This document shows, one piece after another, positions 804-3,677 of a stretch of 58,876 nt of DNA. The notes under the pieces were generated by a model. It was given only the letters and a program-made list of their open reading frames with translations. It did no database searches and was not told the DNA's origin. Source of the stretch: an uncultured Alphaproteobacteria bacterium (GTDB lineage: Bacteria; Pseudomonadota; Alphaproteobacteria; RF32; CAG-239). How positions within the stretch are numbered: the stretch's first letter is position 1; every line of letters starts with the position of its first letter. Both the position numbers and the translations under genes were made by a program. Where the stretch lies: assembly GCA_934271195.1 (NCBI GenBank), contig CAKQRB010000070.1:1-58876 (forward strand), written 5' to 3'.

Positions 804-3677
804 ATGATGAACCTGTGGAAAATAAAACAGTTTTTTGAGCTGTCAAAAAAAGGAGCCGTGACCATGCTGACCGGCGTGTTCCTGACTGTTTTGTTTTTTG
901 CCGGAACGGCGGCCGCCGACACTTCATGCCGCGCCGGAGATAAAGCCAATAAAGTTGACGTTTCCGGAATGGAATCGAGAGATCCGGCAGAAACGGTAGG
1001 AGAGTGCACCCCGCCTAAAAAATGTGACAGCGAAGACTGCGTCGATGCCGCGCCGGCAGACGGGATTACCAGAGTATCGTCACGCGTCGGAATCCGCAAA
1101 CAAAATACCTCAAACGGCGTAGCGGTAGGTTCTACCGGTCATAAAGGCACCGACTATGCGGCGGCCGGAGGATCGGCCGTTTACGCGGCGGCCGACGGCG
1201 AAGTCAGAATCGTAAAATATGAATGTAAGATTCGAAATGGAGCAGTTGTCGGCTACGGAAACTATGTTGCAATCGAGCATGACAACGGATTATGGACGGT
1301 TTACGCCCACCTTTCCGGTGCCGGCGTCAGTGTCGGGCAAAAGGTGAAAAAAGGGCAAGTCATCGGCCTGGTCGGAAACACCGGCGGTTCGACCGGAAAC
1401 CATCTGCATGTGGAATACAGAAAAAACGTGACCGGTACTGTGTTTACGGCTGATGTCATTGACCCGCTGGCTGATAACGCTACAAGTTACGGCCTTTGCA
1501 CGCCGCCGGAGAAATATACCAATAAAGGAACGTCAAACAATAATGCTTCCATAAGTTCGCCCGATGCTTCTACCGGCACGGCAGGCGGCGTTTCAGCCGG
1601 CGGCGTCGAAGCCAACGAACATACTGATAAAGACTGCAATCCGGCGACTTTTAAGCAGACTTATGAAAAATGTTTGTTCTGCAACCTTTTTAAAGTCGCT
1701 TTTAACGCTTGCTCCGCCATTGCCAAGAAATCTTTTGAGACTTTTGCCGATCCGGTGGCAACGCTGGTTGCTCTCGGTTTTGCCCTCTGGGTCGCCTTCT
1801 TCCTGCTGACTTATTTGTCCGGGCTAAAAACGGAAGAGCCCAAACGCTTTTTCAGAAGTCTTTTGCAGCAGGCTTTTGTCGTTTTGTTCGTTTATTTGTT
1901 TCTAAAGTCCGATTCCGCTTCATTTATGAGCATTGCCCTTGAGCCGATTTTTAATACCGGATTTAATCTGGCGCGGCTGGCCATGAGTTCCTCTATTGAC
2001 TGCGGCAGCGCGGACGGATATGGCATCATTACCGACGGCGGATTGCCGGCATCTATGGGAAACAGCATTATTTGCACAATCAAAGCCATTCAGGATAAGC
2101 TGACCAACCTGATGGCTATGGGAACATCTTCAATGTGCGTAGCGTTTTATACAAAGGCTTATTTTAACGTTTTTCCGCATTTGGGATATCTGATTGCCGG
2201 TCTGGGCATGTGGGTCGGCGCTCTGGTTTTGTTGTTTATCTTTCCGTTTTTGATGCTGGACTCGGTACTGCATATGGGTGTGGCTTGCGCCCTATTGCCG
2301 CTGGCCATCGGCGCTTTTGCCTTTAAACCGACCAAAGGTTATGTCGGCAAAATCTGGGAGACGTTCTTGCATGCAATGTTTCAGTTTGTGTTTCTGACCA
2401 TTGTGATTTTGATTTTGTGCACGGCACTGGAAAATATTATGACCGGCGCGGTATCTGACGAAGAAGTTGCGCAGGGATTATGGCAGGTGGCGTTGACGAA
2501 GCTAAAATGGATCGGCGTGCCATTCCTGAAAACCGTCTTTGTGATTTTGTTGGGCTGGGCAGTTTTAGGGCAGATTGCTTCATTTGCACAATCTTTTGCT
2601 AGCACGGTTTCCAGCGCCAACGAATCCAAAAAGATCGGCGGAATGGCGGCTTCGGCCGGCAAAGGAGTGTTTAACCGCGTGGCCAAGCCGGCTCTTAAAA
2701 GAGTGGGCAGCGATGCGGGCAATGCCGTCAAAAGCGCCGGCGACGCAGCAAAATCTTTTGTTGCAAAGCGCTATGCCAATTATAAGGCCAACAAGTTTAT
2801 GAATGCCGATTATCGGGAGCGTAAAGGTATTGTGGAAGGAAAAGACCAAAACGGTAATACAACCTTCACCAGAAACTCCAAATCCTGGTTTTTGAGGCAC
2901 AATAAGAAGACAACTCTGACAATAGCCGGAGACCAGCAGGTTTGGACCAAAGAAAAAAGGCTGTCCGCCTCTACCGTAAAAAGGACGGAAATCCGCAATG
3001 GCACTATAACCGAAACGATTGTCAAAAACGGCAATGTCGTTAGTGAAAAAATTGATTTCAACGACAAAAAATATCAAAATATGCTGGCTGGCGTCAGAAT
3101 AGACATAGCTGCCGTTGAAGAACTGCGCAACAACAACGCCGACAATATCGACGAGATTAACAAAGCTATTTTGTATCATGCTATGGAAGCGAGAACCCCA
3201 GGTGTCGTCAACAGCCATTTTGAGCTGCGGCACATGAAAGACAACGGTCATATTGAGGTTTCTAAAGACGAAAGCGGCAATGAGGTCATGAAAATGACAA
3301 AGGTTGAAAATAACGGCACGCGGCACATTTACTCCATGGTGACAGCCGCTGACGGAAAAGTGACGACGACTTATGAAAAAATCAGAGCCAACGGTTATGC
3401 CGAAATTTTGCGAAGCAACGGTGTGATAAATAAAAAAACAACTTTGAAATATGACAAAAACGGAAAAGTTAAAACCGGAAGCATTAAAAATTCTTATGCC
3501 GCAGCGCGGCGCTTTACCAATAACCGCAGCTCCCTGCCTGTTGACGCATTCGGTCGTCTGGCCGGTTATATGCCAAAAAAAGAAGCGCTCGGACTAGATG
3601 AAGAAGAATGGAACGAGTTTTGCGATCAGCATCTGAACGAAAGACAAGTCAGGACACTCGGCGAATTTGCCGACTAA
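804..3677 (+). CDS. M23 (LytM-type) metallopeptidase domain fused to a VirB6/TrbL-like polytopic membrane domain, with a long hydrophilic C-terminal tail
   Basis: The first 71 codons of ORF 591..3677 overlap the upstream gene. ATG-ATG at 804 gives a signal/TM segment (LTGVFLTVLFFAGTAAA). M23 motifs HKGTDY ... GNHLHVEY lie at approx 1137..1425. About seven hydrophobic helices follow (approx 1730..2590), then a ~360-aa Lys/Asn-rich soluble tail. Confidence 0.8.
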   Translation: MMNLWKIKQFFELSKKGAVTMLTGVFLTVLFFAGTAAADTSCRAGDKANKVDVSGMESRDPAETVGECTPPKKCDSEDCVDAAPADGITRVSSRVGIRKQNTSNGVAVGSTGHKGTDYAAAGGSAVYAAADGEVRIVKYECKIRNGAVVGYGNYVAIEHDNGLWTVYAHLSGAGVSVGQKVKKGQVIGLVGNTGGSTGNHLHVEYRKNVTGTVFTADVIDPLADNATSYGLCTPPEKYTNKGTSNNNASISSPDASTGTAGGVSAGGVEANEHTDKDCNPATFKQTYEKCLFCNLFKVAFNACSAIAKKSFETFADPVATLVALGFALWVAFFLLTYLSGLKTEEPKRFFRSLLQQAFVVLFVYLFLKSDSASFMSIALEPIFNTGFNLARLAMSSSIDCGSADGYGIITDGGLPASMGNSIICTIKAIQDKLTNLMAMGTSSMCVAFYTKAYFNVFPHLGYLIAGLGMWVGALVLLFIFPFLMLDSVLHMGVACALLPLAIGAFAFKPTKGYVGKIWETFLHAMFQFVFLTIVILILCTALENIMTGAVSDEEVAQGLWQVALTKLKWIGVPFLKTVFVILLGWAVLGQIASFAQSFASTVSSANESKKIGGMAASAGKGVFNRVAKPALKRVGSDAGNAVKSAGDAAKSFVAKRYANYKANKFMNADYRERKGIVEGKDQNGNTTFTRNSKSWFLRHNKKTTLTIAGDQQVWTKEKRLSASTVKRTEIRNGTITETIVKNGNVVSEKIDFNDKKYQNMLAGVRIDIAAVEELRNNNADNIDEINKAILYHAMEARTPGVVNSHFELRHMKDNGHIEVSKDESGNEVMKMTKVENNGTRHIYSMVTAADGKVTTTYEKIRANGYAEILRSNGVINKKTTLKYDKNGKVKTGSIKNSYAAARRFTNNRSSLPVDAFGRLAGYMPKKEALGLDEEEWNEFCDQHLNERQVRTLGEFAD

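Follow-up and report, generated by a model that had tools for sequence, protein, structure and literature searches.

Near the start of a 58,876-nucleotide contig from an uncultured gut alphaproteobacterium (CAKQRB010000070.1 of assembly GCA_934271195.1; the contig as a whole is called the window here), a single open reading frame (ORF) encodes an M23-type peptidase domain, a VirB6/TrbL-type membrane core and a long C-terminal tail. The product is probably a VirB6 subunit of a chromosomal, vertically inherited type IV secretion system (T4SS), a subunit that would carry its own peptidoglycan hydrolase, with wall remodeling of the VirB1 type tethered covalently to VirB6. The passage of T4SSs through peptidoglycan is poorly understood: VirB1 is soluble and can often be dispensed with, and where it acts is known only by inference. 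The gene and its parts are as follows.

804..3677, + strand: M23-VirB6-tail fusion gene, 957 amino acids plus stop (ORF list, translation, full-length orthologues at 30-89% identity)
804..914, + strand: signal peptide or signal anchor, residues 1-37, cleavage putative (hydropathy; conserved in orthologues)
1059..1469, + strand: M23 (LytM-type) metalloendopeptidase domain, residues ~86-222 (Pfam, NCBIfam, invariant residues, PDB matches)
1470..1628, + strand: flexible Ala/Thr/Ser/Gly/Asn-rich linker, residues 223-275 (predicted local distance difference test score, pLDDT; composition)
1629..2615, + strand: VirB6/TrbL core, residues 276-604 (Pfam TrbL, AlphaFold2 (AF2), Foldseek, invariant columns)
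2721..3674, + strand: conserved tail, residues 640-957 (AF2 model of the tail alone, pLDDT 88, predicted TM-score (pTM) 0.83)

The frame stays open up to the stop codon at 3675-3677, with no frameshift or internal stop within 804..3677. A first-pass annotation, made from the letters alone, had claimed three fused parts in one ORF and had named an overlooked frameshift or stop, dividing the ORF into two genes, as what would overturn the claim. Both were looked for and neither is present, and the M23 domain, the VirB6/TrbL core and the tail lie in one uninterrupted frame of 957 amino acids. A frame opened at 591 would be the longest, but it would run into the upstream gene, whose last position is 790. 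Translation more likely starts at ATG 804, because residues 1-20 are conserved in orthologues of 88% identity that have no internal Met21. The search for the same fusion elsewhere, which the annotation had proposed, found the identical architecture in dozens of species. Since the full-length architecture recurs in dozens of independent assemblies, the fusion is not an assembly artifact. In the databases the orthologues are labeled 'M23 family metallopeptidase' only. An AF2 model of the whole protein, built with 40 homologues, has a mean pLDDT of 73.

The N-terminus resembles a Sec signal, having a Lys-rich n-region and a hydrophobic core at residues 18-36, followed by TAAA and then D at the putative cleavage site. 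The peptidase domain that comes next is clear. Pfam Peptidase_M23 (PF01551) matches residues 112-208 (nucleotides 1137-1427) with 95 bits against a cut-off of 28.7, and with 100.9 bits in a six-frame search of the genome; the best partial matches in NCBIfam are to the DD-endopeptidases MepM and ShyA. The catalytic and zinc-binding set consists of H113-x3-D117, H169 in the motif YAHLS, and H200-L-H202. These five residues are invariant across 14 orthologues (32-89% identity) and line up with the corresponding motifs in the active DD-endopeptidases NMB0315 and NGO1686 (Neisseria) and ShyA (Vibrio). The M23 β-sheet fold is also present, with Foldseek matches to Csd1/2, DipM, lysostaphin, ShyA and LytM (TMt up to 0.81, E ~1e-6). 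The active-site set is therefore complete, as had been claimed, and invariant as well, but one member had been misassigned: the 'HD' of EHDN (residues 159-160) is not the catalytic histidine, which is H169. We infer activity and bond specificity from the sequence and predict an active enzyme of the DD-endopeptidase type. In the linker that follows, pLDDT is below 50 over residues 241-275 in the AF2 model, and the length of the linker differs between orthologues.

The core begins with a Cys-rich juxtamembrane segment (residues 278-309), which the first-pass annotation had recognized, and three of its cysteines, C278, C290 and C293, are invariant in 40 sequences. Of the domain families whose profiles that annotation had wanted searched, Peptidase_M23 is clearly over its cut-off and TrbL (PF04610) just over, matching residues 413-561 with 26.7 bits. 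In the six-frame genome search TrbL scores 38.7 bits, and PF04610 is also precomputed on orthologues. When the whole model is searched against the PDB with Foldseek, M23 enzymes come first, and chain F of 8rt9, the TrwI/VirB6 of R388, is found at rank 40 (E 7e-5, TMt 0.64, 314 columns); 8rtd_L is also matched. Entry 8rt9 is the TrwJ/VirB5-TrwI/VirB6 stalk of R388, in which VirB6 has seven long helices, five of them hydrophobic (α1, α2 and α5-7) (PMC9259494). The core of the fusion protein shows this pattern in the AF2 model, with long helices at residues 293-339, 346-368, 371-393, 416-450, 460-504, 511-549 and 572-604. The membrane domain had been described as having about seven helices, and the seven long helices stand; only five are hydrophobic, however, so it is not a seven-transmembrane domain. 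A large periplasmic loop, P2 (residues 369-459), contains C400, C424 and C445.

The orientation of the protein in the membrane was judged from net charge and cysteine content, tallied per segment over the 14 orthologues:

N-extension: predicted periplasm; net charge -4.4; at least 9 Cys
Loop between transmembrane helices 1 and 2: predicted cytoplasm; net charge -0.2; no Cys
P2 loop: predicted periplasm; net charge -3.5; exactly 3 conserved Cys
Helix 5-6 loop: predicted cytoplasm; net charge +1.1; mean 0.8 Cys (0 in some orthologues)
Helix 6-7 loop: predicted periplasm; net charge -2.9; no Cys
60 residues past helix 7: predicted cytoplasm; net charge +5.7; no Cys
Tail: predicted cytoplasm; net charge +7.1; mean 0.4 Cys

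All conserved cysteines fall in predicted periplasmic segments, the predicted cytoplasmic ones being almost Cys-free. Because the charge and cysteine bias fit an N-out, five-transmembrane, C-in topology, the M23 domain is predicted to be periplasmic. The signal sequence points the same way, and the topology test that had been called for thus favors the original proposal. The topology of A. tumefaciens VirB6, as cited in PMC7648143, is established as N-out, five transmembrane and C-in. A first hydropathy pass had given six transmembrane segments and a periplasmic tail. That model was rejected, as residues 486-507 continue helix 5 in the AF2 model and the charge bias fits five segments.

The fusion gene is not a solitary VirB6 gene. 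A protein-query search of the host genome (1.53 Mb, 74 contigs, 98.9% complete) found three paralogues on a 6.9-kb contig, C14, and together with the fusion gene they form an array in the order paralogue 1 (882 amino acids), paralogue 2 (433), paralogue 3 (~630) and paralogue 4, the M23 fusion (957). All four share the juxtamembrane signature C...C-x-F-C-x-L-F. The ORF at 2..790 of the window is homologous to residues 363-433 of the paralogue 3 protein in the orthologous locus L012. The start of C14 (locus L018), in reverse complement, shares 10 nucleotides with the start of the window, and the reading frame runs on from '...FSLTGGP' to 'GGPFIIF...'. Because of this overlap and the continuous frame, the reverse complement of C14 and the window's contig are almost certainly adjacent, with the assembly break inside paralogue 3. 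The array and its surroundings in the window read as follows.

2..790, + strand: C-terminal part of VirB6 paralogue 3, broken by the contig end (N-terminal 371 amino acids on C14)
804..3677, + strand: VirB6 paralogue 4, the fusion gene
3802..4782, + strand: double HTH_3 (Xre-type) helix-turn-helix regulator (Pfam; same neighbor downstream in L012 and L013)
11755..37412, - strand: virB-like T4SS operon (Pfam, NCBIfam, hydropathy scan)

The operon encodes VirB11, VirB10/TrbI, a β-flower protein, VirB9/CagX, two VirB8, VirB4, three VirB2/TrbC pilins and several unassigned secreted proteins. A hydropathy scan of all its large ORFs found no polytopic VirB6. Pfam TrbL, run over the whole genome, detects the fusion gene only, the other three paralogues emerging solely with the protein query, and the array family is the only polytopic VirB6-type family in the host genome. 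The array presumably serves this operon, from which the fusion gene is separated by ~8 kb and by its opposite strand. In relatives also, the four-gene array is followed by the double helix-turn-helix regulator and then by the VirB11-VirB10 end of the operon; the four genes are seen in the compared orthologous loci wherever the contig extends upstream. VirD4 lies on another contig (C49), and no relaxase or conjugation genes of the T4SS are found in the window. The fusion protein had been taken for the inner-membrane channel component of the machine, but it is not the only such subunit: three other VirB6 paralogues precede it in the tandem array.

Strong support for a wall-directed function comes from the comparison of orthologous loci. 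A profile-free search with residues 270-957 retrieves 958 cluster representatives at E <= 1e-3, and the position at which the core starts varies widely among them. A Pfam scan of 60 N-terminal extensions finds M23 in 37, a T6SS_VgrG3-like_C domain (a lysozyme-like muramidase) in 14, SLT in seven, and GDSL/SGNH and phage lysozyme in one each. We tabulated 51 loci, comprising 48 species representatives, two further contigs and the window, and a wall hydrolase is present on a VirB6 paralogue in 46 of them. The architectures of paralogue 4 are:

M23-core-tail: 24 loci (window included)
M23-muramidase-core-tail: 13 loci
Muramidase-core-tail: 3 loci
SLT-core-tail: 1 locus (L060)
(Weak M23)-GDSL-SLT-core-tail: 1 locus (L063)
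Core-tail, with M23 on paralogue 3: 4 loci
Core-tail, with no hydrolase on any visible paralogue: 5 loci, 2 of them cut upstream, where the earlier paralogues are not visible

In one subclade of five loci, namely the four core-tail loci with M23 on paralogue 3 and L060, the M23 domain lies between the two halves of the paralogue 3 core, in the periplasmic P2 loop:

L056:6574-9735, M23-in-loop paralogue 3
L057:7355-11215, M23-in-loop paralogue 3, also with a VgrG3-like muramidase at the N-terminus
L059:6685-9849, M23-in-loop paralogue 3
L060:5668-8553, M23-in-loop paralogue 3
L062:4578-7847, M23-in-loop paralogue 3

Stand-alone hydrolases are missing from these regions: no M23, SLT or muramidase ORF of at least 120 amino acids is found in the window or in any flank of 10 kb on either side. 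The remark that the window holds no VirB1 lytic transglycosylase is borne out, there being no SLT or other recognizable wall hydrolase elsewhere in it. The host genome has only two SLT genes, both on other contigs, and five other M23 genes. The longest cassette is that of a rumen Rhodospirillales metagenome-assembled genome (MAG), RUG12396, whose 1,858-amino-acid orthologue (L063:7334-12907) has weak M23, GDSL/SGNH and SLT domains before the VirB6 core. Together these may process the wall as a cassette of three enzymes, in which the SGNH domain beside SLT could be a peptidoglycan de-O-acetylase, by analogy with the Ape-type esterases.

We propose the following mechanism. The signal sequence would deliver the DD-endopeptidase-type M23 domain to the periplasm, where a flexible linker of ~50 residues would connect it with the N-terminal, periplasmic end of the VirB6 core. 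In R388 the stalk stands on the VirB6 core at the inner membrane, so the enzyme would sit where the machine has to pass the sacculus and would cut peptide cross-links there. The tethered M23, alone or with other hydrolases, would thus do what in classical Gram-negative T4SSs is done by VirB1, a lytic transglycosylase that is soluble and encoded separately. Three findings jointly favor a service to the machine in the periplasm, comparable to that of VirB1 in other systems. Enzymes of different classes, all attacking peptidoglycan and including VirB1's own SLT family, share one slot; M23 entered VirB6 a second time and independently, in a periplasmic loop of a different paralogue; and the loci contain no separate hydrolase. 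The idea of tethered wall remodeling, first raised from the window alone, thus gains strong comparative support from the SLT, VgrG3-like muramidase and GDSL plus SLT modules at the same position and from M23 in the loop of another paralogue.

Several points weigh against this reading. The TrbL score is marginal (26.7 against 25.9), so that it is mainly the structural match, the array of paralogues and the genomic neighborhood that identify the protein as VirB6. Several systems can do without VirB1 (PMC9259494; PMC12857230), and five of the 51 loci have no hydrolase on any visible paralogue, so the hydrolase function would not be obligatory. Finally, the repertoire of VgrG3-like muramidase, M23 and GDSL domains also resembles that of antibacterial effectors.

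The last point leads to the alternative that survives best, although we consider it unlikely: the hydrolase modules would be antibacterial cargo on a 'specialised VirB6', comparable to evolved VgrG or PAAR proteins of type VI secretion systems. The M23, muramidase or lipase-like domain would be cut off at the linker and passed through the T4SS to the periplasm of competing gut bacteria. PF21277 was defined on the type VI secretion effector VgrG3, the modules are polymorphic and swapped between species, and the long disordered linker could be a processing site. Extended VirB6 proteins of Anaplasma reportedly are exposed on the surface and may be released (PMC7648143), and bacteria-killing T4SSs secrete peptidoglycan hydrolases (PMC6536674). 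The lack of relaxase or conjugation genes in the window and the conservation of the T4SS across the order would also suit such a role. However, the fusion gene has no small immunity-like partner; what is conserved downstream of it is the helix-turn-helix regulator. The M23 domain is N-terminal to a polytopic core, or in some species inside a loop of it, and would therefore be hard to release. It also diverges at the pace of the whole protein (full-length identity 30-89%) and shows no toxin-like turnover, and the same slot can be occupied by SLT, a classical assembly enzyme.

Somewhat less probable still is a non-lytic role, in which M23 would be a peptidoglycan-binding or regulatory module of the EnvC, NlpD or SpoIIQ type that anchors the stalk base or activates an amidase. 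The fold and sequence matches do include EnvC, DipM and SpoIIQ, the last being a LytM protein that is anchored in the membrane and forms a channel across the envelope, and inactive VirB1 homologues acting as adhesins are mentioned in PMC12857230. Against this, the orthologues show no change at any of the five zinc-binding and catalytic residues, and in relatives the slot is filled by true glycosidases (SLT or muramidase), a point in favor of lysis. EnvC, NlpD and SpoIIQ are not known to have the zinc-binding and catalytic residues of M23. A housekeeping wall endopeptidase that uses a VirB6-like domain as a mere anchor, unrelated to the T4SS, is very improbable: the gene does lie on the strand opposite the main virB operon, ~8 kb away, in a genome with five other M23 genes, but it is the last of a conserved four-gene VirB6 array that always adjoins the operon at its VirB11-VirB10 end, no other VirB6 is encoded in the operon, and the core matches the TrwI/VirB6 stalk structure.

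The VirB6 family to which the fusion protein belongs is widely shared. The 48 genome matches are all MAGs of uncultured gut Alphaproteobacteria, from human, mouse, deer, chicken ('Candidatus Scatocola') and rumen. The VirB6 family with the tail is present in 272 of the 283 genomes of the order (213 of the 219 of high quality) and in 24 of 24 genera, and identity among its members declines with taxonomic distance. In the window the system is flanked by chromosomal genes (ABC transporter, AccA, RmuC). Order-wide presence, identity that tracks taxonomy and the chromosomal flanks together argue that the T4SS is chromosomal and vertically inherited, and not a recent mobile element. A tblastn search of PLSDB with the core gave a single hit, at 21.5% identity; the core is thus very distant from plasmid VirB6, and the system is not a known plasmid T4SS type. 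More tentatively, an order of small-genome gut Alphaproteobacteria may have kept, by vertical descent, a Rickettsiales-like T4SS with four VirB6 proteins, into which the VirB1 function was built repeatedly and in modular fashion, either N-terminally (M23, muramidase, SLT, SGNH esterase) or as M23 in the P2 loop. If so, the sacculus is breached at the side of VirB6 that faces the periplasm, the paralogues may form mixed or alternative stalks with distinct enzymatic heads, and the hydrolase cassettes might double as contact-delivered antibacterial weapons. The recurrent modular fusion would pin wall breaching to the periplasmic N-terminus and the P2 loop of the stalk base, and would give a direct genetic handle on it through point mutants and domain swaps.

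The tail deserves separate mention. The C-terminal ~360 residues had been described as Lys/Asn-rich, and residues 605-957 are indeed 10.8% Lys and 9.6% Asn. The model of the conserved part has a long helix, two antiparallel β-meander sheets with helices between them, and a C-terminal helix. It has no match in Pfam at E up to 1 or in a PDB profile search. Foldseek against the PDB finds only OspA-like single-layer sheets (TM-score at or below 0.3), a wide VIA-align search gives at best Z 8.4 over 76 residues of a generic β-meander, the ESM Atlas returns clusters of the tail's own family only, and a homologue search found no stand-alone tail proteins of 174-557 amino acids; none of these searches points to a function. 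Within the array the tail is found on paralogue 4 only, and it marks that paralogue in every locus tabulated. The tail is a separate, paralogue-4-specific module, most likely in the cytoplasm, and a new conserved domain on a core T4SS subunit. Two observations call for caution on its location: in the assembled stalk of R388 only α1 and α2 sit in the membrane (PMC9259494), and in Anaplasma VirB6-3 and VirB6-4 the C-termini reportedly lie exposed at the surface (PMC7648143). That the tail docks ATPases or substrates in the cytoplasm is speculation.

The neighboring genes have features of their own. Between the array and VirB11 (3802-11139, + strand), the double HTH_3 regulator is followed by a domainless cytoplasmic protein of 1,139 amino acids and by proteins of 210, 418 and 270 amino acids, the 418-residue one being lipoprotein-like ('VFSGC'); the gene order is shared with L012 and L013. 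The VirB10/TrbI gene lies within 12735-20479 (- strand) and encodes 1,542 amino acids with about seven 5-fold β-flower (PF21785)/DUF3659 repeats, a giant form also present in L012 and L013. A separate β-flower protein of 1,037 amino acids lies between VirB9 and VirB10. Two VirB8 genes and three tandem VirB2/TrbC pilin genes are located at 22191-24088 and 35935-37412 (- strand), and the duplication of VirB8 and VirB2, together with four VirB6, recalls the duplication pattern of the Rickettsiales rvh system. Between VirB8 and VirB4 (24099-31702, - strand) are four secreted proteins of 1,399, 381, 241 and 508 amino acids with signal sequences and no Pfam match; the one of 241 amino acids (29458-30183) is a candidate VirB5. 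Adjoining the T4SS is a type IVb pilus cluster (37717-49947, + strand) with a TcpQ-like protein, a secretin, PilO, a T2SSE ATPase, a T2SSF platform protein and three bundlin/PilS-type pilins; a PilT-like ATPase follows at 49949-50911 (- strand).

Enlarged VirB6 proteins and tethered T4SS hydrolases are each already known, and their fusion appears undescribed. In a literature search no account of a VirB6 joined to a wall hydrolase came to light, which does not prove that none is published. With VirB6 of A. tumefaciens and TrwI of R388 (8rt9, 8rtd) the core shares the TrbL match, the seven helices of which five are hydrophobic, the large periplasmic loop between helices 2 and 5, and the fold. 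It is likewise a polytopic inner-membrane component encoded with VirB2, VirB4, VirB8, VirB9, VirB10 and VirB11. Unlike them, the fusion protein is about three times longer, has an enzyme at its N-terminus and a folded tail of 350 amino acids, and is one of four tandem paralogues. RvhB6 of the Rickettsiales, VirB6-1 to VirB6-4 of Anaplasma, and TraG of the F plasmid and SXT are also enlarged by hydrophilic N- or C-terminal extensions. The likeness to the Rickettsiales extends to the tandem array of four paralogues with long hydrophilic extensions (882, 433, ~630 and 957 amino acids), the last one extended, and to the duplicated VirB8 and VirB2. Such arrays, considered typical of the Rickettsiales rvh system, thus also exist in free-living or commensal gut Alphaproteobacteria. 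The tail had been likened to the Rickettsiales extensions, and the likeness is sound for organization (tandem, extended paralogues) but not for sequence, where no homology is shown and the tail has no detectable relative beyond its own family. No enzyme domain is reported on the Rickettsiales extensions in the literature consulted, a comparison by description and not by sequence. The Anaplasma extensions consist of repeats and are surface exposed, whereas the tail is a conserved folded domain predicted to be cytoplasmic.

For VirB1, TrwN and TraL of pKM101, the proposed job is the same, to open the sacculus locally. VirB1 works in the periplasm as a soluble glycosidase of the 'GAMMA class' and is a protein of its own (PMC12857230), whereas the enzyme of the fusion is a peptidase and covalently part of VirB6. 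Like the VirB1-type hydrolases, it is encoded in a T4SS locus and has predicted periplasmic export, judged from the signal sequence and the charge and cysteine bias. Because it has M23 and no SLT or lysozyme-like glycosidase domain, the fusion protein is not a member of the VirB1 family, only a proposed functional substitute; the orthologues in L060 and L063 have SLT in that place. Gram-positive T4SS hydrolases are membrane-anchored and combine LytM, SLT, MUR and CHAP domains (PMC12857230). PrgK of pCF10, TraG of pIP501 and Orf14 of Tn916 are membrane-tethered modular hydrolases of this kind, and the M23-muramidase and M23-GDSL-SLT cassettes follow the same logic, although the Gram-positive proteins have a single anchor helix, are not VirB6 and belong to monoderm hosts. 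A wall hydrolase is also built into a subunit of a trans-envelope machine in FlgJ of β- and γ-proteobacterial flagella, a rod cap with a muramidase, and in PtlE of the Bordetella Ptl T4SS, a VirB8 homologue with a glycohydrolase motif; both are unlike the joining of M23 to VirB6.

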